Below, piece by piece: positions 41,223-57,784 of a stretch of 64,000 bases of DNA (within the stretch, counting starts at the first letter, position 1; each line of letters opens with the position of its first letter). Made by a program: the position numbers and the translations under genes. A model generated the notes under the pieces. It saw only the letters and a program-made list of their open reading frames with translations. It was not told the origin of the DNA and did no database searches. The stretch spans positions 92,952 to 156,951 of the forward strand of contig JAGAKG010000036.1 of NCBI GenBank assembly GCA_017625755.1, read 5' to 3'. This DNA comes from Clostridia bacterium (lineage in GTDB: Bacteria > Bacillota > Clostridia > Oscillospirales > CAG-272).

Positions 41223-43265
41223 ATGAAAAAGACTATAATTTTATTGCTTTGCTTAATGCTGATATTGCCGATGGCGCTGTCGTCGTGTAAAAAAGACGGG
41301 GATATGGGCGAGCAGAGCGACTCTGAGCAGACTACTGTCGCCACGACCGAGTACGATTACAGCAAGATTCCCGATGTGATAGAGCCGCACGAGAGAAAGC
41401 TTATCGCGTCGTCCGAGCTTGGATTGCTCGCGTATTTTACGGGAACCGAAAAATACTATGTTGCCGATGCGAAGGTTGAGGAGAACGGAGATATAACGCT
41501 GACATCGTATAACCCCGGTACAACGGTAATTACGGTTAAGAATTCCTACGGCGAGGAGATGTCGCTCACCGTTACCGTCGGTCTTGACTACGATTTTGAG
41601 AGCATTGATATAAGAAAATTTGAAATGCCCGATAATTATGTTTATGCAACCAATTACGGAATGAACCCCGAAAGGAGCGACAACGCAAAGTACCTTCAAG
41701 CTGCGATAGATTCGCTTAAGACCGGCGGTGTCGTGTATATTCCGAAGGGCAATTATTACAGCACCTTCGTCCGACTAAAAAGCAATGTAAAGCTAAGGCT
41801 TGAGGGTATTCTCCCCGAGTATAACACCGAATTTACCGACGAGCTTTCGGCGGCTATCGAGAGCGGTAATACCTTCGCTCGAATAATCGCCGTGAACGGA
41901 GATATGTTCGCTAACCACGAGAAAGGCGGATACGGAAGATACGGAGCCGATAACTTTGAGATAACGGGCGGAGTGCTTGATATGGCGGGCAAATCCAGAT
42001 GCTTTATCTGGTGCTGCGCAGAGAATGTTCTGCTTGAAAATGTTATTATGACCGATTGTATGAATGACCACGCGATACAGGTTACAGGGTGCAAAAATGT
42101 GACTATCCGCAATGTAATGTTTGCCGGATATAATGCGGGTAGTAATACGAGTGGCGCCGAGTTGATACAGATAGAGACCTCACACCCGGGAGCTATCGGA
42201 ACGGGAACGGTTACAGCGTCGAAGTTCGATGAATATGAATTTTATAGCTGTGAGAATGTAGCCATAGAAAACTGTTATTTCGGCAAGAGTGACAGGTACG
42301 ATTCTGCGACCTATTTTATCGGTCACCATGTGCATAATTCGGGGCCGAGTGTCAGGGGCTTGAAGATAATGGATTGCACATTCGACAACCCGAGAATCGT
42401 TGCCATACGCGCATACGCGTTTACCGATGTTGAGATTGCCGATTGTGTCTTTCTTTCCGACGAGTCCAACTCGGTCGTAAGCGAGGCGAGATACATGATA
42501 GAGCTGACCTTTAATACGGGGCATGTCAAGCTCCCCTCGGGCGCATATCTTTCAACCGCCGAGGACAGGGGCGGAACGCAGAATTTGCGGATACACGATA
42601 ACGAATTTACCATAGGAGATGACTCCTCTATGGCGGGATTTATCAAGACCTTGCGGTCGGGAATAACTCAGTACGACGCTATGGGATACTCAAATATTTC
42701 CGAGACGGATTTTTACACCGAGACGCCGAAAAGCTTTACGGGATATAAGCTTGTGACAACTCGGATTTCGGATATATATCTCCACAATAACAGCTTCACC
42801 GTAAGCAACGGAGCGGACGATAACCTCTTTTATCTCAAGGATGTGAGAGGCGTTGAATTCAAAGGAAATACCTTTGATATCGACGGAGTGGAGATTCTCG
42901 GCGACGATTATTACGGCGCATATCTTGAGGGTTCGACTATGGCGGAGGAATGTCGGAAAAATTTTGTTATAAAGGCAACCTCTGCAAACCGTGACACTCC
43001 GATAGTTCTCGTGTCGGCGGCTGGGAATATCGAGGCTTACTGTACCGCGTCAAGTACAGGTAGCTATTACAACCTGATAGTCAGCTGCGAGGAGGGCGGT
43101 GTGATTGAGCGTCGAACCGATAAAAACGGCGTACTTTATGTCGAGGCTGTCGCCGATGAGGGATATAAATTCGTAGGATATCGCGCCGACGGACAGATGA
43201 TTGAAGCAGAGAATTTTGCTTTCTCGACAACAACCGAAATCGAAGCGATTTTTGAGAAAAAATAA
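41223..43265 (+). CDS. Lipoprotein with a predicted right-handed beta-helix (pectate-lyase-fold) domain
   Basis: Signal peptide with lipobox LSSC. NYGMNPERSDNAKYLQAAIDSLKTGGVVYIPKGNYY is typical of pectate-lyase-3 or tailspike-like beta-helix N-caps, and repeated NVxIxNCxF-like rungs follow. Confidence 0.6.
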   Translation: MKKTIILLLCLMLILPMALSSCKKDGDMGEQSDSEQTTVATTEYDYSKIPDVIEPHERKLIASSELGLLAYFTGTEKYYVADAKVEENGDITLTSYNPGTTVITVKNSYGEEMSLTVTVGLDYDFESIDIRKFEMPDNYVYATNYGMNPERSDNAKYLQAAIDSLKTGGVVYIPKGNYYSTFVRLKSNVKLRLEGILPEYNTEFTDELSAAIESGNTFARIIAVNGDMFANHEKGGYGRYGADNFEITGGVLDMAGKSRCFIWCCAENVLLENVIMTDCMNDHAIQVTGCKNVTIRNVMFAGYNAGSNTSGAELIQIETSHPGAIGTGTVTASKFDEYEFYSCENVAIENCYFGKSDRYDSATYFIGHHVHNSGPSVRGLKIMDCTFDNPRIVAIRAYAFTDVEIADCVFLSDESNSVVSEARYMIELTFNTGHVKLPSGAYLSTAEDRGGTQNLRIHDNEFTIGDDSSMAGFIKTLRSGITQYDAMGYSNISETDFYTETPKSFTGYKLVTTRISDIYLHNNSFTVSNGADDNLFYLKDVRGVEFKGNTFDIDGVEILGDDYYGAYLEGSTMAEECRKNFVIKATSANRDTPIVLVSAAGNIEAYCTASSTGSYYNLIVSCEEGGVIERRTDKNGVLYVEAVADEGYKFVGYRADGQMIEAENFAFSTTTEIEAIFEKK

Positions 43266-43339: not shown

Positions 43340-43672
43340 GTGATACAGTTCGGGCCGAATGTGACTGTTGCTACGGCAAATCACCCCATTGAGCCTTCTT
43401 TGCGTGAGCGTGGGCTGCAATACAACAAGGATGTTCACATCGGCGAGAATGTCTGGATAGGCGCGGGAGCCGTTATAGTTCCGGGTGTTCGTATCGGAAA
43501 AAATTCTGTTATCGGGGCGGGAAGCGTCGTGACCGGGGATATCCCCGAAAATTCGGTAGCCGTCGGAAATCCGTGCAGAGTTATCAGGGAAATAGGCGAG
43601 CGGGACAGAGAGTTTTTCTACCGCAACGAGAGGATAGATTGGGAGTGGATAAATCATCTTGAAAGAACATAA
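43340..43672 (+). pseudogene. Hexapeptide-repeat O-acetyltransferase (maltose/galactoside acetyltransferase-like), N-terminally truncated remnant
   Basis: The sequence starts mid-domain: IQFGPNVTVATANHPIEPSLRERGLQYNKDVHIGENVWIGAGAVIVPGVRIGKNSVIGAGSVVTGDIPENSVAVGNPCRVIREI. The N-terminal roughly 70 aa found in full-length homologues are absent. It has only a GTG start and no RBS, and it sits directly after a terminator. Confidence 0.6.
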
Positions 43673-43811
43673 AGCCACGAATGCCGGCATATGTTATGTA
43701 GTGTCATATATAATTATAGGTAAGCTGTTTGTGCATTTCACCAATATTGTCAAAAAATGACTCTTTCAATTTTGCATTTTCACAAAATTTGTTAAGAATG
43801 GAAAAAATCTA

Positions 43812-43840
43812 TTGACAAAATATATTTACAGTAGTAAACT
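43812..43840 (+). promoter_or_regulatory. Putative sigma-A promoter of the giant gene
   Basis: TTGACA (43812-17), a 17-nt spacer, then TAAACT (43835-40). Confidence 0.45.
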
Positions 43841-43865
43841 ATGTATCAGCGACTCATAAAACTCA

Positions 43866-43903
43866 TTACCGCATAATTCCCGTTATGCGGTAAAATTTTT
43901 CTT
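43866..43903 (+). promoter_or_regulatory. Leader hairpin with U-tract (possible attenuator) in the 5' UTR of the giant gene
   Basis: ttaccgcataa-ttcccg-ttatgcggtaa forms a perfect 11-bp stem and is followed by aatttttctt. It lies 12 nt upstream of the GGAGG RBS. Confidence 0.45.
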
Positions 43904-43928
43904 GTACTACATTATGGAGGTAAATCTA

Positions 43929-46900
43929 ATGAGTAACACCAAAAAAATGTGGATTCGCATTTTGTGTTTGACTTTCGTGCTGTTCAGTATTTTTGCACTG
44001 AACTCCTGCGACGAGAATGACGCAAGCGCTGAATGCGAGCACACATGGGGCGAATGGACGGTTGTGTCCGAGGCTTCCTGCGAGGAAGACGGAGAGAAGC
44101 AACGCGTTTGTTCTGAATGCGAAGAAACAGAAACGAGAGCCATAGCGGCGCTTTCTCACGATTTCGGTGAATGGAGCGTAACTAAGGCGGCAACCTGTAC
44201 CGAGGAAGGCGAGGAGACGAGAGTTTGCTCTCGTAATTCCGAGCATACCGAAACCCGCACGGTTGCAAAAATTGCCCACACCTTTGATGTTGAGAAGGAA
44301 GATGTGGCGTATCTGAAGAAAGAGGGAAGCTGCACAGAGAAGGCTGTATACTACAAGTCGTGTAAGTGCGGCGAGAAGGGAACCGAGACATTTGAGAGCG
44401 GAACACCTTCACATACATACGACAGAGAGGTCGTTGACGCGAAGTTCCTCAAGAGCGAGGCAACATGCACCGCTAAGGCTGTGTACTACAAGTCCTGCGA
44501 GTGCGGCGCGTTTGACGCTGAGAGCAGCGAGACCTTCGAGAGCGGAGCGACCATTCCTCACACATACGGTGAGTCGGTAGTGGCTCCGAGATATCTCAAG
44601 AGCGAAGCAACCTGCACGGACAGAGCTGTTTATTACAAGTCCTGTAAGTGCGGCGCCTTTGACGCTCTCGCGAGCGAGACTTTTGAGAGCGGAAGCCTTG
44701 AGTCTCACAAATACGACAGAGCTGTCGTTGACGCCGAGTACCTCAAGAGCGAAGCTAACTGTAATTCGGCAGCTGTATATTACAAGTCTTGTAAGTGCGG
44801 CGCGTTCGATACGGGCGTAAGCGGAACCTTTGAGAACGGCGACAAGACACCTCATGTTTATGACAGAGCTGTTGCCGAGTCGAAGTATGTCAAGACTCCC
44901 GCAAGCTGCACCGAGAAGGCTGTATATTATAAGTCGTGTAAGTGCGGCGCGTTCGATAAGAGCGTAAGCGAAACCTTTGAGAGCGGGGCGCTTATGCCTC
45001 ACAGCTATGATAAGAGAGTCGTTGACGCGAAGTACCTCAAGAGTGAGGCTACTTGTACCTCTAAGGCTGTATACTACAAGTCTTGTAAGTGCGGCGACTT
45101 TGATACTGCTCTTAGCGATACATTCAAGAGCGGTGAGATGCTGCCTCATATCTATGACAGAGAGGTAGTTTCCTCAGAGTATCTCAAGAGCGGGGCGACC
45201 TGCACGGCTAAGGCTGTATACTACAAGTCCTGCGAGTGCGGACATAAGGGAAGCGCAACCTTTGAGTACGGCAATATTCTGCCTCATGTATACAACAAAG
45301 AGGTAGTTGCAGACAGATATCTCAAGAGCGGAGCGACCTGCACAGAGCTGGGCGTATATTATAAGTCCTGTGAGTGCGGCGCGTTTGACGCAGACCTGAG
45401 CGCAACATTCAGCGGCGGCGAGCTTATTCCTCACACATATAACAGAGAGGAGGTTGCCGACAAATATCTCAAGACCGAGGCAACCTGCACAGCTAAGGCT
45501 GTATACTACAAGTCCTGCGAGTGTGGCGCGTTCGACCGCTACGATAGCGAAACCTTTGAGAGCGGTACCACCATTGCTCATACCTACGATAGAGAGGTAG
45601 TTGATTCCAAGTACATCGCAAGCGAGGCAACCTGTACCTTGGCGGCTACATATTATAAGTCGTGTAAGTGCGGCGCGTTTGACGCGTCTCTCAGCGCAAC
45701 CTTTGCGTACGGCGAGCCTATCGCTCATACTTACGACAGAGAGGTCGTTGAGGCAAGATACCTTGCAAGCGCGGCTACCTGCGAGGCAAGAGCGCGTTAT
45801 TATAAGTCCTGTAAGTGCGGCGCGCACGATAATGCTCTCAGCGGAACATTTGAGTATGGCGACCTTCAGGGACACAACCATGTTCAGATAGCATTTACCG
45901 CGGCAACCTGTACGGTTGACGGCGTCAGAATAGAGGAGTGTACCGTCTGCGGTGATACGATAGAAACTCCTATCATCGCGCAGGGACACAACTATGTTGA
46001 CGAGGTGGTTGAGCCTAAGTGTCTGACTGTTGGCTACACTAAGCATACCTGTTCCGAGTGCGGAGATAACTATTCCGATTCCGAGGTTCCCGCAACGGGA
46101 CACCTTGTATTCGACGATAGGGTTATCGCGCCCACCTGCGAGGACGGCGGATACACCGAGCATAAGTGCAATGCGTGCGGATTTATTGAAAAAATCAATC
46201 CCACCGCAAAGCTCGGCCACGATTATCAGGAGCAGATTCTGACTCCCGCGGACTGTAAGACGGCGGGAACAAAGAAGATAAGCTGCTCGAGATGTGACTA
46301 TGAAAATACCGAGACTATACCTACCACGGACCATAACCATAACTCGGTTACGACTCCCGCAACCTGTACGGTTGACGGATATATAACCTACACCTGCGTA
46401 TGCGGAGATACATACACCGTTGCTGGCGAGGCAGCTCAGGGACATAGCTGGAGCAAGACTCCTGTTTCTCCCACCTGTACCGAGCAGGGATACACTTTCT
46501 GGGAGTGTGACAACTGCGACGCAGAGGAGAAGCACGATTTCGTTGCGGCTAACGGACACAGCTTCAGTGCCGCAACCTGTGCCGAGCCCGAGAGGTGCGC
46601 GTGCGGAGCTACGGGCGCTGCGGCTACTGGCAATCACAATTATGTCGGAGTAGAGACGACTGCTCCCACCTGTACCGTAAAGGGTGTTATGACATATACC
46701 TGCGGTACCTGCGGAGATTCTTATACAGAGGACATAAGCGCGACGGGACACAACACCGAGGGAGCTATCTGGACGGAGACCGAGCAGTGTATAGACGGCA
46801 AGTGTACTTATGTAAAGATAAGCACTACGACCTGTCTTAACAACAATTGCGGAGTTACCGTTTCCGAGACATCCGCTTCCTATGAGAAGCACTCCTATTT

Positions 46901-49900
46901 GGCAACGATAACTCAGGCGGCAACCTGTACCGTACCCGGTATCAAGACATATAAGTGTACCGTCTGCGGCGGTCAGCCCGCTGAGAACGCGACCGTTGAG
47001 TATTCCGAGGCATCGGGACACACCTGGATCGAAACCGCTTCGACGACGACTACCAAGTCCTACGAGTGCTCTGCTTGCGGCGAGACAAAGACGGTAGTAC
47101 ACAGCGACGGTAACTCGGCGAATGTCGGTGCGAGCGACCTCAGCTCCTCGGGCGGAGTCAACCTCGGCGGAACCGAAATAGAGCTTGACTCGGCTACCAA
47201 GGAGCAGTTGGGACAAATCACTCAGACTGAGAATATTACTGTCTCCGTCAATAAGATAGAGGGAAATGACAGAAACGACCTTGTCAACGACGAGACTCAG
47301 CTTGAATATATCGGCGACGCTCCCATCTACGACCTCACTATGTTGATAGGCGGAGATGAAAACAACAAGATAAGCAACTTTAACGGTAAGGTCACCGTTC
47401 GTATACCCTACACGCTTGAGAGCGGCGACGACCCCGAGAATCTTACCATCTGGTATATTGATGACAACGGAGAGGTTTCCACTATCGACGGAGCGACCTA
47501 TGTCGTTATCGGCGGTCAGGGATATGCGGTATTCGAGACCGACCACTTCTCATACTATACCGTTACAAAGCTCACCCCCGCAGAGCGTTGTGAGCGTGAC
47601 GGACACATAGAAAAGACTATCAAGCAGAATGCAACCTGCCTTATAGGCGGATACGAAAAGACAGTATGTACCCGTTGCGGAGAGGTTCTTGAGAATAAGA
47701 CAACTCCCGCGCTCGGACACAATTGGAGCCAGGAAGTAATCTCCGAGGCTACCTGTGACGAGGCAGGTCAGACCAAGCACTCCTGCGACAGATGTAAGCT
47801 CGTTTACTACACGGTAACTGCTGCTATCGGTCACAAGTGGGCAGAGGATAAGACTGTTGAGGCAAGCTGCTCCGAAACAGGATATATTCTTTACATCTGT
47901 GAAAATAACAAGGCGCATACCTATACGGTAGTTATACCTAAGAAGAACCATAGCTATGTATCTGTGGTTACAAAGCCTACATGTACGACAGAGGGATATA
48001 CGACTCATACCTGCTCTGATTGCGGAGCAAGCTATATCTCCGACCGCGTAAAGGCAACGGAGCATAAGATAGTAACCAAGGTAGTTGAGCCTACCTGTAT
48101 CTCCGAGGGATACACGGCACAGTCCTGCGAGAAATGCGGACAGCGTTTCAAGGATATAGACATAGTTCCCAAAACGGGACATAGCTGGGATATAGAAGCT
48201 CCCACTTGTAGCAAGGGACAGACCTGTACTGTATGTAACGCGGCGGGTGATGCTGCTACGGGCGAGCATAATATGACAGAGAAGGGCGAATGCTCCGATT
48301 GCGGAAAGGCGTGCGAGCATAAGTTCTATCAGGGAGAGGTTCACGCTCCCACATGTATTGAAAACGGTTACACCGAATACATCTGTAACTTCTGCGGACT
48401 CGTTGAGAACCGCGATGTCGTAGAGCACGGCGACCACACCTGGAAGGATGCCGAGCATAAGGCGGCAACCTGTACCGACGACGGTTACGATAAGTGGATA
48501 TGCTCTGTATGCGGTGAGACCAAGACAGAGATAATTTCTCACGGAGACGGATTCCATAAGACCTCTACCAAGGTCGTTGCTCCTACCTGCGAGGAGGAGG
48601 GATACACACTTCAGTTCTGTAAGGTCTGCGGACAGGAAATAGAGCGTACAAACGCAGTTCCCGCAACAGGACACAAGTATGAGGTAATCGAGAATGTCGA
48701 GGCTACCTGCGAGAAGGACGGTTATATAATTGCCAAGTGCGCGGGTTGCGGACACGAGACCGAAAAGGTACTTGAGGCAACGGGACACAGCTACAGTGTT
48801 TACGAGGTTATAGAGCCTGAGTGCGGCAAGGAAGGCGCGACTGTATACAAGTGTTCGGGCTGTGGCTCGACATACGAGGAGCCTATCGAGGCGCTTAAGC
48901 ATAACTTTGAGCAGTACGGTAAGGTAGAGCCTACCTGTGAGGGTGAGGGAGCTATACTTTACAGATGTACCGCCTGCGGAGTTGAGATAGCGGAGATAAT
49001 CAAGGCAAACGGACATAACTACGAGCTTTCCGAGACGGTTGATTCTACCTGTACAGTAAACGGTAAGAAGATATACGCTTGTACGGCTTGTGACTCCACC
49101 GTGGAGGAGGAGCTTGAGCTGGCTGACCACAATTATGTTGACGGTAAGTGCGAGGCGTGCGGAAAAGAGCAGTCCTCTTGCAAGCACGCAAGTCTTGAAG
49201 ATTGCGATGTAACATACAAGTTTATAAACGGCTCGACTTCCTGCGAGGAAGGTGTTGAGGTGATCTACACCTGCCCGAACTGTGAGCAGGTAGTAATCTC
49301 CGAGATAAGAGACGGACATATTTACAGACGCGAGGATATTTCGGCTGACTTTGATGTTGCGGGTAACATTTTCGTTGAAAAGTGTATAATCTGCGACAGA
49401 GGAGATATCTATATCAAGCTTCCCAACTGTCAGATGATGTCTACGACAGATAAGCATATTGACGAAGAAGGAAATACCGTCGTAGTTGAGACATATCTGT
49501 GCGTTGACTGCGGATTCAGCTATACTCGCAAGATGACCGTGAAGTCGGAAGACTGCAGGTCTGAATATGAGTATGTATACACATTCGGTAAGGACGGATA
49601 CACCGTAAGAATAGTGAACATTGCGGAGTCTCACAACTACTTTACCGAGTGGGAGGAGTTTATTGACGAGGAGAATCTCACACTCACCGAGGTCGGAATA
49701 CGCTCCTGCAAGGATTGCGGCAAGGTATTCTACCGCAGAACAGATACGATGAAGTATCTTGCTGAGGATATTCCTCTTGAGTTTATTGAGACATTGGAGC
49801 TTGCTCTTGACGATAAGGGAACAGAGTTTATTTTGGTTGAGAAGGAAGCTCAGCGCGCTGAATACGAGATAACCGAGGACGGTGAGTATATCCCCGTTGC

Positions 49901-52900
49901 TATGGTTGGAAGCTATACCACTTACAACAGTAAGGGTGAGCCCGCAACCGTAGAGGAGGAGATAGAGAAATACACCGCCGACGGCGATGAGAGCTATTTC
50001 TACGCGGCACTGTATAATTACATCTGCGGCGAAAAGGTACTCATAGAATATGAGGAAGAAGAATATGTTACAGTCACACTGCCCGGCGGATACGAGAAGA
50101 ACTTTATCGCATCCAACAAGGCGGGTGAGTATGACATAAACGGAGAGGTCATCTACCTTTACGAGGAGACCTACACCTACGAGATAATTGAGGGTGAATC
50201 CTGCAAGATCAATGTAACTTACTCCGATTCCGAGGGTAACACGGATACCTTCGTTAAGGAAGCGCATGTCAATGTTGAGAAGTTTATCGAATTTGCAGAA
50301 GGCTCGAACAGCTGTACTCAGGGTGTATATACCGTAGAGAGATGTACCGTTTGCGAGACCGAGATAAACCGTACTTACAGAACACACCATTCGCTTTATA
50401 GCTATGCTGACGATGAAATCGATGCGGGCGAGCTGGGATGCGAATGCGGCGGATTTATATCTCGTGTTCACTGCGAGTACTGCGATTATGAGTCTGTAAA
50501 TTACCACTTCAACTGTGATATGTCTGAGGGCGGATACGATTACGACGGCGACGGTAAGTTCGATACTCCCGAGGTCGTTCTTCCCGTATTGCCGAACGAC
50601 TCCAAGTACGATGTCGGATACGGCACCGTTGACGGAGATATCGCGTATGACGAGGAGATCGGCGGCGATAACTGGGGCGAAATCGTAGATGGAGATACGA
50701 CTACATCGACCTTCAAGACCGAGCAGACCTGCCGCAACTGCGGATTCAGCTATTCTGTTGAATGGTACACCGAGCGCGGCGAGAACTGCCAGGTTACTAA
50801 GTATTACACATATAGCTTTGGTAAGGATGCCGACGGAAACGCTCTGCTCGTAATAGAAACGGTAGACGATTCGAGCTACACGCATTCCTACACAAGCGAA
50901 GAGAAGATGCTTGAGGATACCTACGAAACTCAGGCTGACGGAAGCGTACTGCTTGTAACTGTCTTTGAAACAAAGACATATTGCGTAAGTTGCGGTCATG
51001 TTTCAAGTTACGAGCGTGTTACGGTTAAGCGCGACACCGAGGGCTATGTTCTTTACGAGGGACGCGAGCATATAAGCGGTGAAGGCGATAATAGCTATGT
51101 ATCCGAAAAGATAGAGACTATCTACGAGAAATATAAGCATCCCGACGGAACTGTCGAGACACGCCAGACCGGCTGGGGTGAGTACAGATACAACCAGCTC
51201 GGCGAGGAGATTTATTTCTCGAGAGACACCTATATATACAATGATGAAACTCCCTGTATCGTAACCGTTATCTGGGAAAACTCGAACGGTGACCGCGAGG
51301 AGCATAAAGAAGAAAACCACGAATTTACCAGAGTTCCCGTACTCGTAGAGGGTGCGGAGAGCTGTGAGGACGGCGTTCGTATCGTTGACAGATGTACCGT
51401 CTGCGGATACGAGGAGGACGAGGGCAGAACAGTCAATTGGCACTATACCGTAAACGAGCATATCGACTTTGCGCCTTACGGCTCTATCTGCGGAGCTTGG
51501 ATGAATATTGAAACTTGTGCGTGCGGACAGAGTTCTTACATCTACTTCGAGCGCGCGGGAATGTTCAATATTCAAAATGGCTCCTACAAGGACGAGAACG
51601 GCAATATGCACAAGCTCGAACGCGGCGAATGTATGGCTGACGGCTTCTGGTACGAGATAGACTACTATTCGGTAAGAGGAGAGAACTGCTCTGTTACCGA
51701 GTATTCGGTATATCGCTTCGGTAACTCCGAAAGCAAGGAAGCGCTCCTTGAAAAATCGATAGTAAGAGAGAGAAAGGGCGCTCATAAGACAGAGTTTAAG
51801 GAGATCGTCAATGAGACGACTCAGGAGTTCGACGAGGTAACGGGCGAGGTTCTGAATGTTCATACATACGAGGTAGCTCACACATGTATGAATTGCGGAA
51901 CTGTAACAGACCACTACCGTACGGTCGATAAGAACGACAAGCTCGGAAATTCCGTATATCATAAGAACGAGAATTTCTTTACCGCTTCGAATGGCGTTGA
52001 GTATCTGGGTAACAGCTTTGAGGCACTCTATATGTCCGTAAAGCTTGCCGATGGAAGCATAGCTACGGTAGAGCTATCCACCTCCAATAAGGAATACGAC
52101 GAAAACGGAAATCTTACCTGGTTTGAGGATACCGTTTACGAGTATGTCGGCGGATACTGTGAATATATTGCTCACAGGACAAACAGCGACGGAAACGAGT
52201 GGGAAGAAAAGGGTGAGAATCACGGAGCGACTGTTGAGAGAGTAACTCTCATGGAAGGCGCCGAGACATGTGACGACGGTGTTATATGTACTCATGTATG
52301 CCTGCTCTGCGGAAAGGAAACATACAGAACCGAATTCTATCATCACTATACCGTATATGAGAGTGTTGATCTTAGCGAGTACGGCTGCAAGTGCGGCGGA
52401 CAGTTCGATGCCAATACCTGCGCGTGCGGAATGTATAATAACTTCGATATAGGCGCAGGCTGTGCGTTCGAGTCCACCCGTACAACGGTAGTTGACGCAG
52501 AGGGCAACAAGCATACTGTTACGACCTATACCTGTATGAACTGCAACTTCTCTTACTCGAGAGAGACCTGGAGAGAGACAGGCGCGTTCTGCCATACCTA
52601 CTACTACACGGTATTCAATATAGGTCTTGATGCGGAAGGCAATGCGGCGATAGTCAAGACCACGGTTAAGGATGCGGGAACCTCCCACAACATCACGACT
52701 GAGGGCGGAGAGGCTATAAAGACCACCGAGACCGATGAAAACGGAAATATACTTACCGTAGTTACGACAGAGATAAAGAATTACTGTCTCATTTGCGGAA
52801 CCGTTGAAACGCACTTCGTAACGGTTGAAAAGTACAACGCAAACAACGATGTTGTTTACAAGGCCAACACGAATTACGCCTTTGCCGATGGAAAAGAGTA

Positions 52901-55900
52901 CATCTGTAACGAGATTGTTGAGAAATTCGAGATAGTACTTCTCGCAAACGGAAATCAGAAGCAGCTTTTGACAGAATCCTCTAATTACACCTACGCTCCC
53001 GACGGAAGCATACTTGAATTTATCGTATATGAATACGAGTATACAGAAGGCGATTACTGTAATGTTAAGGTTACATACAACAGTAGCAATGGAAGCGATA
53101 GCTATACCGAGGAAAGACACGGTAGCCTCCAGGAGAGCTTTGCTCTCATGGAGGGCGCTACCAACTGCTATGAGGGAGTTCTTGTAACCAACACCTGCCT
53201 TGATTGCGGTAAGGTAGTAAATACCGAAGAGATTTACAGACATGTTACCAGATGTGAGACGGTAAATCTTAGCGAGTACGGAAGTGTATGCGGCGATTTC
53301 ATTGACTTCTATTCCTGCCCCTGTGGCGAGAATAATCATTACAAGCAGGCTTATGCGTGCGCTTACACCTGCGTGGAAAGCAAGTATGATATACTAAACG
53401 GATTTGAGCGTGCATACGAGGCTTACCGTTGTATGAATTGTGGTTTCGAATATACCTACGAGCGTTGGACGGAGCTTGACGAGAACTGCAACGGCGCTCA
53501 GTACACCAAGTATTCCTTCGGTAAGGACGAAAACGGCAATCCTCTCGGTGAGAAGATAGTTGAGATTTCTATGAAGGAAGCTCATAATTGGACATATGAC
53601 GAGGATATCGTTGAATCTGTGGAGACAGACGAGAACGGTAACACACTCAAGGTCATCACTACCGAGAGAACCGAGTACTGCTCGAACTGCGCGAAGCGTA
53701 GCTTCCGCGAGATTACCGTTGAGAAATTCGACGATAAGGGTAACATAGTATTCAGAGAAACAAGCAGATACTATACCGACGAAAAGGGAGAATATCTCTC
53801 CGAGACTGTTACAAGCACATTCGCGACGGGTGTTAAGGCAGACGGCACGAGCTTCACATATGAGGCTTCGCGCAAGACGCTCTACCACTACGGTATTGAC
53901 GCAGGCTACTGGTGCCAGTACACCTACACCTACAAGGACGGAAACTGGTGCACAAGGTATGTCACTATGACTGCATCCGACGGAAACAGCAATAGCTATG
54001 TCGAGGAGAACCACGGAGAGTACAAGACGGTAGTTACGCTTATGGACGGAGCGGCAGACTGTAACAGCGGCGTAATCGTAAGCGAGATGTGTGTCGACTG
54101 CGGAACCGTATTTAAGTCTTACGATGCTTATCATCACTATATGGTAACTGAAAGGATAGATGCGTCCACACTTGGTTGCGGCTGCGGCGGAGAGGTAGTT
54201 ATTGACGCCTGCGCTTGCGGATATCAGTCGAATGTTCATGTTAAGACCGGTTGTACATTCAATATCACCTCTGACAAGGTAGATAACGGAGACGGAACGA
54301 CTCATAACACCAGCATATACGCCTGCGATATCTGCGGCTTCAGCTATACCTATGAGCGTTGGAACGAGTATGACGAGAACTGCGTCAACTACAACAACAA
54401 GGTTTATAAATTCGGACTTGACAAGGAGGGCAATCCTCTCCTTGTCAAGGAGATCAGATTAAGCCGCGGTGAGAATCACAGCTACTCGGGTATCAATAAC
54501 GAAGCTGTTGAAACCACAGAGATAGACAAGGCAGGAAATGAGCTTCGCGTCGTTACTACAACAGAATCGAACTCCTGCACGCGTTGCGGCAGATTCGGTC
54601 ATATGAATGTAACCGTAGAGAAATACCTTACCGCAAACGCTGAAATGGGCGACGAAATCTGCGTATATATCTGCAAGGAAAACTATATCCCCTCTGTCGA
54701 GGCAGAGAACGGTATCTATCTCCATAGCCAGGATATATGGGAGTACGGTTATTACACCGACGCACACGGTAAGCTCGCTACCTATCCTACTCTTGAATAC
54801 ATCGTATACTACAATGTTTACGGTGAGATAGACGACTTCCAGCGTTACGAGTATTCCTACAAGGAAGGCAACTATTGCGTTGCAACGGTGCTTTATACTA
54901 ACTTCTACGGAGACAAGAGCGAGGAAGTAAGAACGAATCACTCCGAAGTTCACTTTGATTACATTCTCTCCAAGGGAAGCGAGTCCTGCGCTGACGGAAT
55001 CGACCTCGTAGAGCTTTGCGTAGCCTGCGGAACCGAAATATCCCGTATGGAAAATTACACCAAGGAGCATCTGTTCTGCGATACCCCCTCGAGTGTAATA
55101 GACCTTGAGCAGTACGGCTCTGTCTGCGGCGGCGAGCTTCAGATATTCACCTGCCCTTGCGGAAAGAAGGAGAACACAAATATAGTTTCGGATTGTCCCT
55201 TCAACTATACGGGCGAGTATTACACCTACACGGCAGCGGACGGAAGCACCCATACCCGTGAGATAATGACCTGCCCCGTTACCGACCCCGAGCTTTGCGG
55301 ATTCAGCTATGTCTATATTGATTGGCAGACCTCCGATGAGAACTGTATGGCAGTTTCCCATCGCGTTATCCTTCTCGGAGTTGACGCCAAGACAGGAGAT
55401 TACGCTTATAAGTATGAGGCTACCTACGGTGAGGATTATTACAATCACTCGATGATAAATTCTTATAACACCTACATCACCGACGACGGCAAGACTGTTA
55501 CCGAGAGTGTAAATACCTGCGAGAAGTGCGGAGCCATATCCTACAAGAACATAACAACATCTTATGTTGACGAAAACGGAGACAATGTTTTTGAGCAGGA
55601 GTCATACTATTATAGGACGGAATTGGCGGATAACGCCGTTCTCAGCCATAATTACAGAATAAACATCACGAGAGATGTTAAGGTTGGCGACGAGACTCGT
55701 AGCGTAACGGTTTACACAAAGAACGAGGAATACGGCTATCTCGATGAGCTTATGTATTGGACTGAGGAATCCTATGTATATAACGAGGAATCCTGCTGTA
55801 CGGGAACAAGAAATGTGAAGAGATACCATGCGGATAAGGATATAATCAACGAGGAAAGCTACGACTTTGATAATCATTCAATCCACAACAGCGAGATTAT

Positions 55901-57212
55901 CGTTGAGGCAACCTGTACTCAGGTCGGAATAGCTGTTCATAGCTGTGGCTACTGCGATTATTCCTACCAGACCGAGGACGCTCCTATGGGACATATGTAT
56001 CAGTTCAAGCCCACAGAGAATTTGTGGATATGCCGCAATTGCGGACTTGAGAATTTCACGGGCGTCGACGGAGAGGTTATCTTTGAGGATCTCACAGCCC
56101 GTCGCGGCGACGGAAGCCGGTATATTGTCGGTTACCGCAACCACTGGGGAAGTGAGTATATCTTCTCGCTTTATCTCGTGATAGACGGAGAGGAGCTTCC
56201 GATAGACCTTGAGGCTATTGACGACGGAAAATCTCTCGTATATATTGATGTAAACGCCGTTGCTAAGCTTGCCGAGGCTATGGGATATAAGCCCTGCGCT
56301 TATATGGTATGCCTGCGCTTCGTGCCGATAGGCGACGATTCGGGATACTACTATGATTTTGCTATCACGCTTGATCCTCACGCGTACGCCATAGACGAGG
56401 AAAACAGCGTAATTCCCGAGGATCCCTGCACGCAGCAGACGGTTACCGCTTATAAGTGTGTTCTTTGCGGCGACAGCTACACAGAGACTGTTCTCGCGGG
56501 ACACGACACAGAGTGGATAAGCAATTCTATCGGTGATTGCGGCTCGGCTATCAATGTTGAGGTCTGCAAGGTGTGTGATAAAATTTTCACCGTAGAGAGA
56601 CAGCAGGCTTGTGACTTTGAGTATACCTGTTCCACCGAGACCGATGAGAACGGTATTACCCGTACGATAGAAAATTATGTCTGCCGCAACTGCGGAGCAA
56701 GCTATGCGCACGAGTATTACACAATCTCCAAGGAGTCATGCTTCTCTGATGAGTACAGCATTACCAGATGGGGACTTCAGGATGACGGAAGCTATGCTTT
56801 CGAGGCAACGGTAGTTACCGAGAGTGAATCTCATATCTATGTTTCCAAGAGTGACATTACTGAGGAAGGATATACTACCGTAATCACCAAAACCACGGCG
56901 TGTGAGGATTGCGGAAAGATATCGAGTCAGAATATAACTACTACCGTAGTAGACGAAAACGGACACAATGTATCTCAGCTTATAGATAGCTTGACTTCTA
57001 ACGGTGTTCGCACCAAGAATTACAGAGAGTACTTTACTGCCGAGAACGGTGGCTCCTATGAGTCAATTCGCACATTTGAGCGTATTGACGCGAACGGTGT
57101 GTTGACCGGTTATACTATGGTTTACGAGTATGACTTTGAGGCAGGCGTTCGCTACTGGACCAGAACCGATGTTAGCGGAAAGGTTACAGAAGGAAAAGAC
57201 GCTATAAAGTAA
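43929..57212 (+). CDS. Giant (about 4,427 aa) Cys/His-rich multi-repeat putative surface lipoprotein, function unknown
   Basis: One uninterrupted ORF. GGAGG lies 8 nt before the ATG at 43929. The signal peptide MSNTKKMWIRILCLTFVLFSIFALNSC has a lipobox-like Cys. Three tiers of repeats follow, then terminator hairpins. I see no C-terminal LPXTG, SLH or TM anchor. Confidence 0.85.
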   Translation: MSNTKKMWIRILCLTFVLFSIFALNSCDENDASAECEHTWGEWTVVSEASCEEDGEKQRVCSECEETETRAIAALSHDFGEWSVTKAATCTEEGEETRVCSRNSEHTETRTVAKIAHTFDVEKEDVAYLKKEGSCTEKAVYYKSCKCGEKGTETFESGTPSHTYDREVVDAKFLKSEATCTAKAVYYKSCECGAFDAESSETFESGATIPHTYGESVVAPRYLKSEATCTDRAVYYKSCKCGAFDALASETFESGSLESHKYDRAVVDAEYLKSEANCNSAAVYYKSCKCGAFDTGVSGTFENGDKTPHVYDRAVAESKYVKTPASCTEKAVYYKSCKCGAFDKSVSETFESGALMPHSYDKRVVDAKYLKSEATCTSKAVYYKSCKCGDFDTALSDTFKSGEMLPHIYDREVVSSEYLKSGATCTAKAVYYKSCECGHKGSATFEYGNILPHVYNKEVVADRYLKSGATCTELGVYYKSCECGAFDADLSATFSGGELIPHTYNREEVADKYLKTEATCTAKAVYYKSCECGAFDRYDSETFESGTTIAHTYDREVVDSKYIASEATCTLAATYYKSCKCGAFDASLSATFAYGEPIAHTYDREVVEARYLASAATCEARARYYKSCKCGAHDNALSGTFEYGDLQGHNHVQIAFTAATCTVDGVRIEECTVCGDTIETPIIAQGHNYVDEVVEPKCLTVGYTKHTCSECGDNYSDSEVPATGHLVFDDRVIAPTCEDGGYTEHKCNACGFIEKINPTAKLGHDYQEQILTPADCKTAGTKKISCSRCDYENTETIPTTDHNHNSVTTPATCTVDGYITYTCVCGDTYTVAGEAAQGHSWSKTPVSPTCTEQGYTFWECDNCDAEEKHDFVAANGHSFSAATCAEPERCACGATGAAATGNHNYVGVETTAPTCTVKGVMTYTCGTCGDSYTEDISATGHNTEGAIWTETEQCIDGKCTYVKISTTTCLNNNCGVTVSETSASYEKHSYLATITQAATCTVPGIKTYKCTVCGGQPAENATVEYSEASGHTWIETASTTTTKSYECSACGETKTVVHSDGNSANVGASDLSSSGGVNLGGTEIELDSATKEQLGQITQTENITVSVNKIEGNDRNDLVNDETQLEYIGDAPIYDLTMLIGGDENNKISNFNGKVTVRIPYTLESGDDPENLTIWYIDDNGEVSTIDGATYVVIGGQGYAVFETDHFSYYTVTKLTPAERCERDGHIEKTIKQNATCLIGGYEKTVCTRCGEVLENKTTPALGHNWSQEVISEATCDEAGQTKHSCDRCKLVYYTVTAAIGHKWAEDKTVEASCSETGYILYICENNKAHTYTVVIPKKNHSYVSVVTKPTCTTEGYTTHTCSDCGASYISDRVKATEHKIVTKVVEPTCISEGYTAQSCEKCGQRFKDIDIVPKTGHSWDIEAPTCSKGQTCTVCNAAGDAATGEHNMTEKGECSDCGKACEHKFYQGEVHAPTCIENGYTEYICNFCGLVENRDVVEHGDHTWKDAEHKAATCTDDGYDKWICSVCGETKTEIISHGDGFHKTSTKVVAPTCEEEGYTLQFCKVCGQEIERTNAVPATGHKYEVIENVEATCEKDGYIIAKCAGCGHETEKVLEATGHSYSVYEVIEPECGKEGATVYKCSGCGSTYEEPIEALKHNFEQYGKVEPTCEGEGAILYRCTACGVEIAEIIKANGHNYELSETVDSTCTVNGKKIYACTACDSTVEEELELADHNYVDGKCEACGKEQSSCKHASLEDCDVTYKFINGSTSCEEGVEVIYTCPNCEQVVISEIRDGHIYRREDISADFDVAGNIFVEKCIICDRGDIYIKLPNCQMMSTTDKHIDEEGNTVVVETYLCVDCGFSYTRKMTVKSEDCRSEYEYVYTFGKDGYTVRIVNIAESHNYFTEWEEFIDEENLTLTEVGIRSCKDCGKVFYRRTDTMKYLAEDIPLEFIETLELALDDKGTEFILVEKEAQRAEYEITEDGEYIPVAMVGSYTTYNSKGEPATVEEEIEKYTADGDESYFYAALYNYICGEKVLIEYEEEEYVTVTLPGGYEKNFIASNKAGEYDINGEVIYLYEETYTYEIIEGESCKINVTYSDSEGNTDTFVKEAHVNVEKFIEFAEGSNSCTQGVYTVERCTVCETEINRTYRTHHSLYSYADDEIDAGELGCECGGFISRVHCEYCDYESVNYHFNCDMSEGGYDYDGDGKFDTPEVVLPVLPNDSKYDVGYGTVDGDIAYDEEIGGDNWGEIVDGDTTTSTFKTEQTCRNCGFSYSVEWYTERGENCQVTKYYTYSFGKDADGNALLVIETVDDSSYTHSYTSEEKMLEDTYETQADGSVLLVTVFETKTYCVSCGHVSSYERVTVKRDTEGYVLYEGREHISGEGDNSYVSEKIETIYEKYKHPDGTVETRQTGWGEYRYNQLGEEIYFSRDTYIYNDETPCIVTVIWENSNGDREEHKEENHEFTRVPVLVEGAESCEDGVRIVDRCTVCGYEEDEGRTVNWHYTVNEHIDFAPYGSICGAWMNIETCACGQSSYIYFERAGMFNIQNGSYKDENGNMHKLERGECMADGFWYEIDYYSVRGENCSVTEYSVYRFGNSESKEALLEKSIVRERKGAHKTEFKEIVNETTQEFDEVTGEVLNVHTYEVAHTCMNCGTVTDHYRTVDKNDKLGNSVYHKNENFFTASNGVEYLGNSFEALYMSVKLADGSIATVELSTSNKEYDENGNLTWFEDTVYEYVGGYCEYIAHRTNSDGNEWEEKGENHGATVERVTLMEGAETCDDGVICTHVCLLCGKETYRTEFYHHYTVYESVDLSEYGCKCGGQFDANTCACGMYNNFDIGAGCAFESTRTTVVDAEGNKHTVTTYTCMNCNFSYSRETWRETGAFCHTYYYTVFNIGLDAEGNAAIVKTTVKDAGTSHNITTEGGEAIKTTETDENGNILTVVTTEIKNYCLICGTVETHFVTVEKYNANNDVVYKANTNYAFADGKEYICNEIVEKFEIVLLANGNQKQLLTESSNYTYAPDGSILEFIVYEYEYTEGDYCNVKVTYNSSNGSDSYTEERHGSLQESFALMEGATNCYEGVLVTNTCLDCGKVVNTEEIYRHVTRCETVNLSEYGSVCGDFIDFYSCPCGENNHYKQAYACAYTCVESKYDILNGFERAYEAYRCMNCGFEYTYERWTELDENCNGAQYTKYSFGKDENGNPLGEKIVEISMKEAHNWTYDEDIVESVETDENGNTLKVITTERTEYCSNCAKRSFREITVEKFDDKGNIVFRETSRYYTDEKGEYLSETVTSTFATGVKADGTSFTYEASRKTLYHYGIDAGYWCQYTYTYKDGNWCTRYVTMTASDGNSNSYVEENHGEYKTVVTLMDGAADCNSGVIVSEMCVDCGTVFKSYDAYHHYMVTERIDASTLGCGCGGEVVIDACACGYQSNVHVKTGCTFNITSDKVDNGDGTTHNTSIYACDICGFSYTYERWNEYDENCVNYNNKVYKFGLDKEGNPLLVKEIRLSRGENHSYSGINNEAVETTEIDKAGNELRVVTTTESNSCTRCGRFGHMNVTVEKYLTANAEMGDEICVYICKENYIPSVEAENGIYLHSQDIWEYGYYTDAHGKLATYPTLEYIVYYNVYGEIDDFQRYEYSYKEGNYCVATVLYTNFYGDKSEEVRTNHSEVHFDYILSKGSESCADGIDLVELCVACGTEISRMENYTKEHLFCDTPSSVIDLEQYGSVCGGELQIFTCPCGKKENTNIVSDCPFNYTGEYYTYTAADGSTHTREIMTCPVTDPELCGFSYVYIDWQTSDENCMAVSHRVILLGVDAKTGDYAYKYEATYGEDYYNHSMINSYNTYITDDGKTVTESVNTCEKCGAISYKNITTSYVDENGDNVFEQESYYYRTELADNAVLSHNYRINITRDVKVGDETRSVTVYTKNEEYGYLDELMYWTEESYVYNEESCCTGTRNVKRYHADKDIINEESYDFDNHSIHNSEIIVEATCTQVGIAVHSCGYCDYSYQTEDAPMGHMYQFKPTENLWICRNCGLENFTGVDGEVIFEDLTARRGDGSRYIVGYRNHWGSEYIFSLYLVIDGEELPIDLEAIDDGKSLVYIDVNAVAKLAEAMGYKPCAYMVCLRFVPIGDDSGYYYDFAITLDPHAYAIDEENSVIPEDPCTQQTVTAYKCVLCGDSYTETVLAGHDTEWISNSIGDCGSAINVEVCKVCDKIFTVERQQACDFEYTCSTETDENGITRTIENYVCRNCGASYAHEYYTISKESCFSDEYSITRWGLQDDGSYAFEATVVTESESHIYVSKSDITEEGYTTVITKTTACEDCGKISSQNITTTVVDENGHNVSQLIDSLTSNGVRTKNYREYFTAENGGSYESIRTFERIDANGVLTGYTMVYEYDFEAGVRYWTRTDVSGKVTEGKDAIK
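44277..45872 (+). repeat. Eleven tandem 45-49 aa (135-147 bp) coding repeats (tier A)
   Basis: Consensus HTYDREVVDAKYLKSEATCTAKAVYYKSCKCGAFDxxxSETFESGxxxP. Nine units are 49 aa, one is 45 and one is 46, which totals 532 aa and fills the interval exactly. The YYKSC(K/E)CG cores recur at about 44341, 44471, 44620, 44770, 44915, 45063, 45210, 45350, 45493, 45645 and 45790. Confidence 0.9.
45873..47102 (+). repeat. Tier B block 1: about 11 coding repeats of roughly 38 aa with an H...C-x9-C-x2-C pattern
   Basis: Examples are GHNYVDEVVEPKCLTVGYTKHTCSECGDNYSDSEVPAT and GHSWSKTPVSPTCTEQGYTFWECDNCDAEEKHDFVAAN. Two related units also lie at the N-terminus (about 44030-44276). Confidence 0.8.
47580..49178 (+). 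repeat. Tier B block 2: about 15 further H...C-x9-C-x2-C repeats
   Basis: Examples are HKIVTKVVEPTCISEGYTAQSCEKCGQRFKDIDIVPKT and GHKYEVIENVEATCEKDGYIIAKCAGCGHETEKVLEAT. A Cys-free insert at 47103-47579 separates this block from block 1. Confidence 0.8.
49179..57209 (+). repeat. Tier C: eight divergent super-modules of about 260-357 aa, plus one divergent interruption
   Basis: Module-initial C-x9-C-x2-C knuckles have their first Cys codons at 49242, 50313, 51363, 52269, 53166, 54060, 54987, 55914 and 56427. Recurrent internal landmarks are HHY, YGCxCGG...CACG, YxCxNCGFSY...ENC, FGxDxxGN, TDENGNxLxVxTTExxxYCxxCG, TVEKxDxxGN and YCxxxVTY. Confidence 0.8.
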
Positions 57213-57231: not shown

Positions 57232-57259
57232 AAAGGGCTATTGCTTGCAATAGCCCTTT
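57232..57259 (+). terminator. Hairpin after the giant gene
   Basis: aaagggctattgc-tt-gcaatagcccttt. It shares the 14-nt core tattgcttgcaata with the rpsU terminator. The T-tract is weak. Confidence 0.5.
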
Positions 57260-57271
57260 GACTTTGAATAT

Positions 57272-57308
57272 AAAAAAACGCTCGGAGATTTTTCTCCGAG
57301 CATTTTTT
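57272..57308. terminator. Bidirectional intrinsic terminator
   Basis: aaaaaaa-c-gctcggaga-tttt-tctccgagc-a-tttttt lies between the convergent giant gene and the ACP gene. Confidence 0.8.
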
Positions 57309-57319
57309 ATACCTTGAAA

Positions 57320-57547
57320 TCAGTTGTTGAGGGATTCGAGGTAGTTGACAACATCGCCAACGGTGGTGAACTGACGGATATCGTCGTCATTGATCTCAAT
57401 ACCGAATTTGTCCTCGCAAAGCATAACGAGGTCAGCAAGCTCAATAGAGTTGATGCCGAGGTCGCCTGAAAGCTCAGCCTCCATCTTGATATCGTCGCGG
57501 TCGATCTGAAGCTCCTCAACGAGCAATTCAGCAAACTTTTCGTACAT
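57320..57547 (-). CDS. Acyl carrier protein (stand-alone)
   Basis: MYEKFAELLVEELQIDRDDIKMEAELSGDLGINSIELADLVMLCEDKFGIEINDDD... has an ACP fold with the LGxxS phosphopantetheine site. The ATG at 57547 follows GGAGG, and the ORF-track start at 57616 is unlikely. Confidence 0.8.
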   Translation of the reverse strand: MYEKFAELLVEELQIDRDDIKMEAELSGDLGINSIELADLVMLCEDKFGIEINDDDIRQFTTVGDVVNYLESLNN

Positions 57548-57784
57548 AGTTATATACCTCCGAATATTGTCTTTTGGTTTGGAGTAGGAGCGGTTAAAAT
57601 ACGCGCTCCGACACATTCTAGAACATTATATAACATTTTTTGTCAAATGTCAAGTAAAATTTTAATATTGCTTTCCGTGCGCAGATTTTTTATAATAAAG
57701 GTAGAATGTTTTGGGAAAAATTTGACACCCGACATATTTTATGATACTATATTACAGTATTAGCAGAAAGATGATGGAGACTCT

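Follow-up and report, generated by a model that had tools for sequence, protein, structure and literature searches.

Among the surface proteins described so far, those most similar to the protein reported here carry the MAIN (Microbial Autoproteolysis INducing) domain, a GAIN-like beta-sandwich enriched in Bacilli and Clostridia, for which self-cleavage between the F and the S of an HFS motif was shown experimentally; the fragments stay associated, and a release of the ectodomain under shear was proposed (Brogan & Rudner, bioRxiv 10.64898/2026.05.12.724683). According to the same preprint, the listed members were recovered by PSI-BLAST from the MAIN domain of YfkN and are recognized by a conserved H-X-(S/T) located in the turn that leads into the last beta strand of MAIN and reading HFS in Bacillota; 'nearly all' of the tested domains were cleaved, and 'virtually all' of the proteins are arranged as signal peptide, ectodomain, MAIN and C-terminal anchor. 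In this work we analyzed a stretch of 64,000 nucleotides (nt), hereafter the window, of contig JAGAKG010000036.1 from a Clostridia bacterium (assembly GCA_017625755.1) and, within it, a single giant gene on the forward strand, encoding a protein of 4,427 amino acids (aa) that appears to combine a MAIN-like domain with small His/Cys-rich repeats, which we call beads (type A and type B), and with larger modules of about 300 aa.

The comparison with the MAIN surface proteins, such as YfkN of B. subtilis, reveals the same beta domain, devoid of Cys and with an invariant HFS preceding its last strand, in proteins that are likewise large, secreted and surface-anchored in Bacillota and for which a release of the ectodomain under force can be proposed. 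However, the window protein and 111 relatives would be anchored at the N-terminus, through a lipid or a dockerin, and not through a C-terminal LPXTG or SLH; in the window protein an ectodomain of 3,220 aa follows MAIN, so that the piece predicted to be released is the C-terminal fragment bearing the tethering strand. Moreover, this ectodomain is built of uncurated metal-knuckle units, whereas the published ones contain Ig, cadherin, lectin or enzyme domains. The predicted organization of the gene product is the following (positions of the window):

43902-57212 (+), open reading frame (ORF), with ATG 43929 as the likely start; the only very long ORF in the region
43929..57212 (+), coding sequence for 4,427 aa plus stop, identical to GenBank MBO5415874.1
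43929..44009 (+), signal peptide with a lipobox-like L-N-S-C, read from the sequence; Cys27 is the predicted lipidated first mature residue
44010..47087 (+), proximal stalk, aa 28-1053, with two beads of type B, 11 of type A and about 10 that are either type-B or short
44259..45872 (+), array of type-A beads (11 units, 45-49 aa each), pattern H-x17-C-x9-C-x-C, anchored on YYKSCxCG
47088..47573 (+), MAIN-like (microbial GAIN-like) autoproteolytic domain, aa 1054-1215, assigned by homology to a listed MAIN protein
47544..47552 (+), invariant His1206-Phe1207-Ser1208, predicted self-cleavage site F/S
47574..49166 (+), distal stalk, aa 1216-1746, with about 14 type-B beads and short variants
49167..55838 (+), aa 1747-3970, a run of seven modules (about 300-357 aa), each with four conserved ligand tetrads and an all-beta hairpin body
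54912-55838 (+), module 7, counterpart of the conserved terminal 'CAVTDP' module of the relatives
55839..56018 (+), one type-B bead and a short CxxC knuckle, aa 3971-4030
56019..56351 (+), 'tip' domain, aa 4031-4141, non-repeat and conserved (84 of the 150 relatives)
56352..57209 (+), eighth module, aa 4142-4427, an extra one after the tip domain, absent from the syntenic orthologue

The region comprising aa 1054-1215 is the only long Cys-free stretch of the protein and ends with ...YAVFETDHFSYYTVTKLTPAER, that is, with the HFS of positions 1206-1208 followed by YYTVTKL. A tblastn search of plasmid records with this domain retrieved one site of Paenibacillus cellulosilyticus (E 2e-3), belonging to an ORF of 579 aa composed of a cohesin-like part, ...VIFQATHFSTYGVV and then SLH repeats; its computed mass (60,764.5 Da) is that of WP_110042109 in Table S2 of the preprint, whose Table S3 lists this protein as Cohesin-ZU5-SLH (bioRxiv 10.64898/2026.05.12.724683). 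The alignment of the window family with WP_110042109 by hhalign, which places HFS on HFS, gave a probability of 98.1% (E 1.2e-13), the assignment to MAIN being thus made via a listed member and not by direct comparison with YfkN; because of this match, aa 1054-1215 can be placed in the sequence family of a listed MAIN protein, and they carry the H-X-(S/T) signature as HFS. Among the 150 best relatives, 112 possess exactly one copy of the domain, and all but one of these 112 retain HFS; an alignment of 19 sequences shows no exception to H, F and S, and no other part of the protein is as well conserved, the mean column identity being 47% around the HFS strand compared with 27% in the modules. 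Three of the 19 members gave weak Pfam matches to FIIND (the self-cleaving, ZU5-like domain found in NLRP1 and CARD8) that run colinearly over the cleavage region, while the profile of the domain retrieved from the Protein Data Bank (PDB) nothing but chance haemagglutinin matches. On these grounds, the window protein most likely self-cleaves at F1207/S1208, and the statement of the initial annotation that no catalytic motif was recognizable does not hold, since HFS is such a motif. The presence of a MAIN-type domain with invariant HFS also implies that the protein is probably not one continuous covalent fibre: the lipid anchor and the knuckles envisaged for a lipid-anchored extracellular fibre find support, its continuity does not, and the adhesin role is still an inference.

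The reversed order (anchor, stalk, MAIN, ectodomain) is shared by the relatives, the domain being located N-terminal to all modules in 111 of 112 of them, whereas two smaller bead-containing proteins exhibit the canonical order, with MAIN followed by a C-terminal transmembrane segment. The predicted products of the window protein are Cys27-Phe1207 (1,180 aa, 128 kDa), which would stay anchored, and Ser1208-Lys4427 (3,220 aa, 363 kDa). Whether the protein is fixed at one end or at the other, the domain is pulled between its N-terminus and the C-terminus of its last strand, and the same fuse mechanism might therefore apply to both topologies.

The N-terminus of the window protein (MSNTKKMWIRILCLTFVLFSIFALNSC) possesses the elements of a signal peptide, i.e., an n-region KK..R, a hydrophobic core and a final L-N-S-C, to be compared with the lipobox consensus [LVI][ASTVI][GAS]C. 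Classical lipoboxes (VSC, VAC, SSC, etc.) are found at the same place in about 56 of 150 relatives, and about 40 of the 150 best relatives harbor a type-I signal peptide and then an N-terminal Dockerin_1 domain, confirmed by Pfam in three of four representative N-termini (two above the cut-off, one just below it). Since other relatives swap the lipid anchor for an N-terminal dockerin, the N-terminus is the anchored end across the family. It is probable that the window protein is secreted with an N-terminal lipid anchor, as the signal peptide with a lipobox-like end had suggested from the beginning. The reported lack of other anchors is also in agreement with our data: Pfam detected no LPXTG, SLH, dockerin or choline-binding domain in the protein, whose C-terminus is hydrophilic. 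The dockerin-bearing relatives recall the assemblies of the cellulosome type; however, the window protein has no dockerin, cohesin, enzyme or carbohydrate-binding module (CBM) and would be lipid-anchored.

The gene itself is real, intact and reproducible across assemblies. It is deposited in GenBank as a "hypothetical protein" (MBO5415874.1) of a Clostridia metagenome-assembled genome (MAG) from ruminant gut; two other assemblies, one of which is a ruminant gastrointestinal metagenome, contain this 13,284-nt gene, differing from it at 0 and 1 nt, next to the same neighbour genes, three independent assemblies thus agreeing on its length, and two further 4,427-aa members of the cluster differ from the window protein by 1-2 aa. 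Even the most regular array, that of type A, has diverged at the DNA level (Tandem Repeats Finder, period 147, 67% matches), which makes a collapse of the repeats unlikely. The reading frame was described as unbroken, and one intact ORF of 4,427 aa is indeed present; the "couple of hundred" cysteines become 241 Cys (5.4%) upon counting, together with 121 His and 329 Tyr, and the fixed spacings are confirmed (28 C-x9-C-x2-C, 50 C-x2-C and 21 C-x-C). The three tiers of repeats are real, but the protein is not repetitive throughout, as aa 1054-1215 and aa 4031-4141 form non-repeat domains. A chain of antisense ORFs (up to 1,149 aa) overlies the gene (44409-56711, -); the sense frame contains just 11 TTA/CTA/TCA codons, eight of which fall at the ends of the listed antisense ORFs, and these long ORFs are shadow ORFs of codon usage. 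All the flanking signals mentioned in the initial annotation were located, the promoter and the leader hairpin as consensus matches only:

43812..43840 (+), promoter-like TTGACA-17-TAAACT (consensus scan alone, 10 of 12 matches)
43866..43893 (+), leader hairpin of 12 pairs with a T run, between the promoter-like site and the ribosome-binding site (terminator-like scan)
43916..43920 (+), GGAGG ribosome-binding site, 8 nt 5' of the ATG, read from the sequence
57232..57311 (+), two terminator hairpins 3' of the stop, at about 57232-57259 and at 57280-57301 with a T run

The leader hairpin (43866-43893, +) could be an attenuator or the terminator of an upstream hexapeptide-repeat gene; the search of the 5' leader (43600-44000) against Rfam gave no family match. 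The second of the 3' hairpins, GC-rich and with a T run, is common to the giant gene and to a convergent acyl carrier protein (ACP) gene.

Concerning the beads, 35 clear units can be recognized in aa 28-1760, with the pattern His-x(8-17)-Cys-x(5 or 9)-Cys and a last ligand (20 units end in x2-Cys, 13 in x-Cys and two in x5-His); in the proximal stalk each bead has a tetrad of one His and three Cys (or His2Cys2), and the type-B set comprises short variants besides about 24 regular units, each about 38 aa long. A model of two type-A and three type-B beads (aa 545-763) obtained with AlphaFold2 reached a predicted local distance difference test score (pLDDT) of 94.7; its Foldseek search against the PDB gave nothing at E<1e-3, the best local match being the NrdR zinc ribbon (probability 0.69). 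Beads match no zinc-ribbon or rubredoxin-like family of Pfam above the gathering threshold, but all their sub-threshold matches fall in zinc-ribbon or rubredoxin-knuckle families, the best scores being those of Desulfoferrod_N (19.7 bits, cut-off 23), Zn_ribbon_CSL (21.3, cut-off 29.2) and zf-CHY (16.2, cut-off 31.3). The labels PF16459 Phage_TAC_13 and zf-CHY attached to homologues were discarded, as they represent summed weak bead matches and not domain membership. Thus, the beads resemble zinc-ribbon and rubredoxin-like domains (Zn_ribbon_CSL, zf-CHY, zinc_ribbon_16; zinc-ribbons_6 of ECOD) in having two knuckles and four Cys/His ligands on short beta hairpins, and the DPAM label 'zinc-ribbons_6' stands beside a MAIN/ZU5 domain in six proteins of the preprint tables (bioRxiv 10.64898/2026.05.12.724683). 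However, those families are overwhelmingly intracellular and single or paired, whereas the window protein would expose an extracellular array of at least 35 units, all of them scoring below the cut-offs and with a first ligand that is a His placed 10-17 residues upstream.

Among the matches listed, the search with the type-B region retrieved more than 5,000 proteins and that with the type-A region more than 3,000, and the named ones belong to Oscillospiraceae, Ruminococcaceae or Clostridia; in these proteins beads co-occur with dockerin, cohesin, SLH, Big_2, LRR_5, CAP and F5/8-C domains. Since thousands of proteins are returned, the bead can be regarded as a common, uncurated spacer in the surface proteins of Clostridia. 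Hence, the view of an "unknown family" was right as far as curated families are concerned, but the protein is not isolated, given these bead proteins and the 536 module clusters described below. A further type of bead, with the pattern H-x-W/Y...G-x-H-T-x-x-C-x-N-D-x-x-H...C-x-G-G, alternates with type-A and type-B beads in relatives (P0143, P0163, P0166 and others), so that the bead superfamily is larger than the three tiers of the window protein.

The assumption that small His/Cys knuckles rather than Ig-like domains form the building blocks is borne out by the comparison with the giant adhesins of Gram-positive bacteria (Ebh, SasG, Rib/alpha-like, Big and FIVAR arrays). Both groups are long, rod-like and cell-anchored, consist of small domains in tandem, diverge rapidly and vary in the copy number of their repeats; in contrast, Pfam found no Ig-like, Rib, FIVAR or G5/E domain in the window protein, whose blocks are the His/Cys knuckle of 38-49 aa and the 300-aa module with four tetrads, and whose anchor would be an N-terminal lipid and not LPXTG.

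The eight modules of the window protein share 23-37% pairwise identity and 14 invariant columns. An exhaustive profile search with the module retrieved at least 536 clusters at E<=1e-3, 251 of them at E<=1e-30, and almost all of the 536 are giant proteins (1,000-7,583 aa) with many copies, whereas a word-indexed homologue search with the module alignment, which listed only proteins of about 910 aa or fewer, gave no match. The unit repeated in the relatives is the N-terminal portion of about 170 aa (1,229 matches in 150 proteins); the full 300-aa module usually occurs once or in few copies, the window protein being unusual in having eight. In an alignment of 43 module sequences 11 columns are invariant, and every one of them is His or Cys. 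The ligands can be arranged into four tetrads, grouped according to sequence order and not to measured ligand distances (module 4 numbering):

S1, H10-C26-C36-C39, HCCC in 1026/1031 copies
S2, H51-C67-C76-C78, HCCC in 1027/1303; variants CCCC (57) and HHCC (16)
S3, C90-C114-C117-C133, CCCC in 1030/1271; variants HCCC (19)
S4, H165-C198-C201-C289, HCCC in 112/121

Over more than 1,000 module copies (121 in the case of site 4), 83-99.7% have Cys or His in all four ligand columns and 79-99.5% show the canonical HCCC/CCCC arrangement. The AlphaFold2 model of module 4 (pLDDT 94.4, predicted template modelling (TM) score 0.73) is all-beta with long hairpins. In its C-terminal half, long beta hairpins with Y-x-Y-D-x-x-G-like turns are reminiscent of YD/Rhs and of MORN/YwqK-type sheets, and Foldseek gave weak matches to the teneurin YD shell and the Rhs core (E 0.01-0.06, TM score <0.1), to LptD and to MORN or YwqK-like proteins, those to MORN and to YwqK-like viral proteins being local (probability about 1, TM score about 0.4-0.5 of the target). 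However, there is no sequence-family match with these proteins, the global TM score is below 0.3, and the sheet of the window protein is interrupted and appears to be pinned by Cys/His tetrads. The module profile retrieved noise alone from PDB sequences (tau, rubredoxin, E>0.008), and the full-length protein had no significant match in Pfam, NCBIfam or PDB sequence searches; family searches on the repeats, which had been recommended as a check, matched no curated domain family of known function. A full-text literature search found no relevant work on beads or modules, and a preprint on giant genes describes a different, RCC1-type class of Oscillospiraceae giants.

The tip domain is usually located 0-150 residues from the C-terminus in the relatives, and the module preceding it bears the signature CAVTDP...WQLGYD, once per protein. 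Since some relatives carry a CBM (CBM26, in one of 7,583 aa, and CBM9), at least part of the family would seem to bind polysaccharides. Overall, three uncurated components (bead, module and tip) appear to be combined with an inverted MAIN topology.

Based on these data, we lean, with moderate confidence, towards a lipid-anchored, metal-stapled adhesive surface fibre with a force-releasable distal part, exposed by an uncultured gut Clostridium. The protein would be exported by Sec and tethered to the membrane via the lipidated Cys27; a stalk of about 23 beads, each pinned by a site of one His and three Cys most likely occupied by structural zinc, might cross the wall; the MAIN beta domain (aa 1054-1215) would then cut its own chain between Phe1207 and Ser1208, giving the anchored 128-kDa and the distal 363-kDa fragments. 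The latter, composed of about 14 beads, eight 300-aa modules with four metal sites each and the tip domain, would be held solely by its first beta-strand (SYYTVTKL) inserted in the MAIN sandwich and might bind a target, such as dietary fibre, mucus or other cells. A pulling force could extract the strand and free the distal part, MAIN acting as a mechanical fuse or a shedding device.

Several points weigh against this model. The lipobox has an atypical Asn at position -2, and the domain order is not the canonical one, as the anchor is N-terminal and 3,220 aa follow the cleavage site. No domain for the binding of carbohydrates or other ligands can be recognized in the window protein; searches of Pfam and PDB with the tip profile returned no significant match, the Foldseek search of the module 4 model against PDB and BFVD gave no match at E<1e-3, and neither modules nor tip have a match of known function in Foldseek, Pfam or PDB. 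To these one may add the above-mentioned grouping of the tetrads by sequence order. Moreover, lipidation, zinc, cleavage, force-dependent release and adhesion are steps that we infer, whereas the integrity of the gene, the size of the family, the conserved tetrads, the confidently predicted folds that lack known relatives, the homology to a listed MAIN protein and the N-terminal anchoring across the family were established directly.

If the HFS domain were a non-cleaving structural beta-sandwich spacer, the protein would be a single covalent lipid-anchored fibre or adhesin. The order of the domains, which is the reverse of the published arrangement, speaks for this idea, as does the fact that the preprint claims cleavage for 'nearly all' and not for all of the tested domains, and the cleavage of the window protein is itself predicted from the sequence; nevertheless, it appears rather unlikely, because a mere spacer would not be expected to keep HFS in 111 of 112 relatives, to have invariant H, F and S and to be best conserved in the strand around them (47%, compared with 27% in the modules), and the N- to C-terminus pulling geometry of the domain is identical whichever end is anchored. 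An extracellular rod cross-linked by oxidation, with the cysteines paired in disulfide staples, seems to us distinctly unlikely. In many organisms Cys-rich extracellular repeats are indeed disulfide-bonded, and the metal is a prediction here; however, the number of Cys per site is odd (three) and accompanied by an invariant His, His and Cys replace each other at the ligand columns, some beads have the variant HCC-x5-H, zinc-ribbon families are the only ones that the knuckle spacings (C-x2-C, C-x-C) resemble, and the external milieu of a gut anaerobe and spore-former (DpaA/DpaB in the window, ruminant gut sources) is reducing. Because of the three Cys and one His per site (HCCC in 1026/1031 copies at S1), the His/Cys exchange and the HCC-x5-H beads, metal ligands are favoured over disulfide pairs, and between the two alternatives left side by side in the initial annotation, metal or disulfide, it is the former that gains support, the metal being presumably Zn. 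Counting about 40 beads and four sites in each of the eight modules, the protein would contain roughly 75 predicted metal sites. One may also imagine the fibre as a switch responding to oxygen, to other oxidants or to zinc loss, in which the metal is ejected, the beads unfold and the stalk lengthens or softens and loads the MAIN fuse, so that the obligate anaerobe, under hostile conditions, detaches from its adhesive ectodomain or sheds it; we consider this unlikely.

A chemical role of these Cys/His sites, i.e., metal buffering or sequestration, redox or oxygen sensing or electron transfer, would account for their very high density, and thiolate-zinc sites are oxidant-labile. Still, such a role looks very unlikely: the ligands occupy fixed positions of beta units that are confidently folded in the models, as is typical of structural zinc, the sites, one for each bead of about 38-49 aa, are probably too far apart for electron hopping, and a protein made up of anchor, stalk, MAIN and tip has the layout of a surface fibre. 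Highly improbable, too, is a contact-dependent delivery system of the Rhs/YD or polymorphic-toxin type, with the modules as shell or carrier and a payload freed by the MAIN cleavage. It could be suggested by the weakest-level Foldseek matches, which include the teneurin YD shell and the Rhs core, and by the MAIN domains fused to RHS toxins that have been noted (bioRxiv 10.64898/2026.05.12.724683), but those matches have TM scores below 0.3 and E>=0.01, Pfam detected no RHS_repeat, toxin or immunity domain, the C-terminus is a further module and not a variable toxin tip, the next gene downstream is the convergent ACP gene and not a small immunity-like one, and the neighbourhoods of the relatives are mutually unrelated. 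Lastly, a long and internally repetitive gene assembled from short-read metagenomes might be an assembly artefact or a decaying gene; this is extremely improbable, since independent assemblies agree within 0-1 nt over 13.3 kb, the repeats are diverged in DNA, hundreds of relatives (1,000-7,583 aa) are intact and an intact, colinear, syntenic orthologue exists, the last two findings answering the question of frameshift decay posed at the outset.

This orthologue (P0273, 3,916 aa) occupies the same site after rplM-rpsI and is colinear with the window protein, with a lipobox LNAC, HFS at 1147, seven modules and the tip at the end. The suggested search for orthologues and copy-number variation was therefore fruitful, as P0273 is intact and has seven type-A units instead of the 11 of the window protein. 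Identity between the two proteins amounts to only 39% over the N-terminal and 28% over the C-terminal part, compared with 90-94% for the L13 and S9 encoded alongside; the giant protein thus shows the fast divergence and copy-number change that are typical of exposed surface proteins. A genome scan with a subfamily motif alignment disclosed module relatives in six MAG loci, whereas a scan with a single protein as query found none. The MAGs are named Faecousia sp., Eubacteriales bacterium and Clostridia bacterium, and their sources include roe-deer cecum, water-deer rectum and sheep colon. The hypothesis of a conserved gene neighbourhood was rejected, as four relatives have mutually unrelated neighbours, which indicates that the giant gene works alone. 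In the window the neighbour genes code for the ribosomal proteins L13 and S9, an S1-domain protein, ACP, ComEC, DpaA/DpaB and TypA; these genes and a GC content of about 48% indicate the chromosome of a spore-forming Firmicute.

Next to nothing is known of the surface biology of the gut Clostridia of the Oscillospirales type, an abundant and uncultured group. The bead, found in thousands of surface proteins beside cohesins, dockerins, SLH and LRR, and the module, found in hundreds of giants, have no Pfam or NCBIfam model and no structural relative in the PDB. Should zinc be bound by the beads, these would represent a rare case of extracellular poly-zinc-knuckle rods and would point to metal staples in anaerobes where aerobes use disulfides or isopeptide bonds. 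In addition, with the inverted order the MAIN release mechanism would cover a second topology, as well as proteins anchored by a dockerin or as lipoproteins. If the metal-loss switch were true, the family would form a new class of extracellular metal-dependent mechanochemical proteins with two undescribed folds (module and tip), and many surface proteins of Clostridia sharing the same beads would be a chemically switchable material.

As for the surrounding genes, a 680-aa protein encoded two genes upstream (41223-43265, +) carries a Flg_new_2 (InlB B-repeat-like) domain at its C-terminus, has weak matches of the right-handed beta-helix/pectate-lyase-like kind and is probably another secreted surface protein; its gene is absent at the syntenic locus of the orthologue (L011). 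An ORF of 1,006 aa (29694-32714, +) has zero Pfam matches even at E<=5. The convergent gene (57323-57550, -) codes for a stand-alone acyl/peptidyl carrier protein (PP-binding) of 75 aa, with no synthase gene adjacent, and an unusual fusion of an HTH_3 DNA-binding and an ADP-ribosylglycohydrolase domain (542 aa) is located at 33869-35497 (+). In a Zixibacteria MAG (L010), an 11-residue WQLGYD match, with E 3e-4 relative to the candidates only, is probably due to chance. On contig L012 (25394-33205, +) a second giant gene (>2,944 aa, with LRR_5 BspA-type repeats) directly follows the one coding for a 5,734-aa member of the family, which suggests that giant surface proteins are clustered in that genome.

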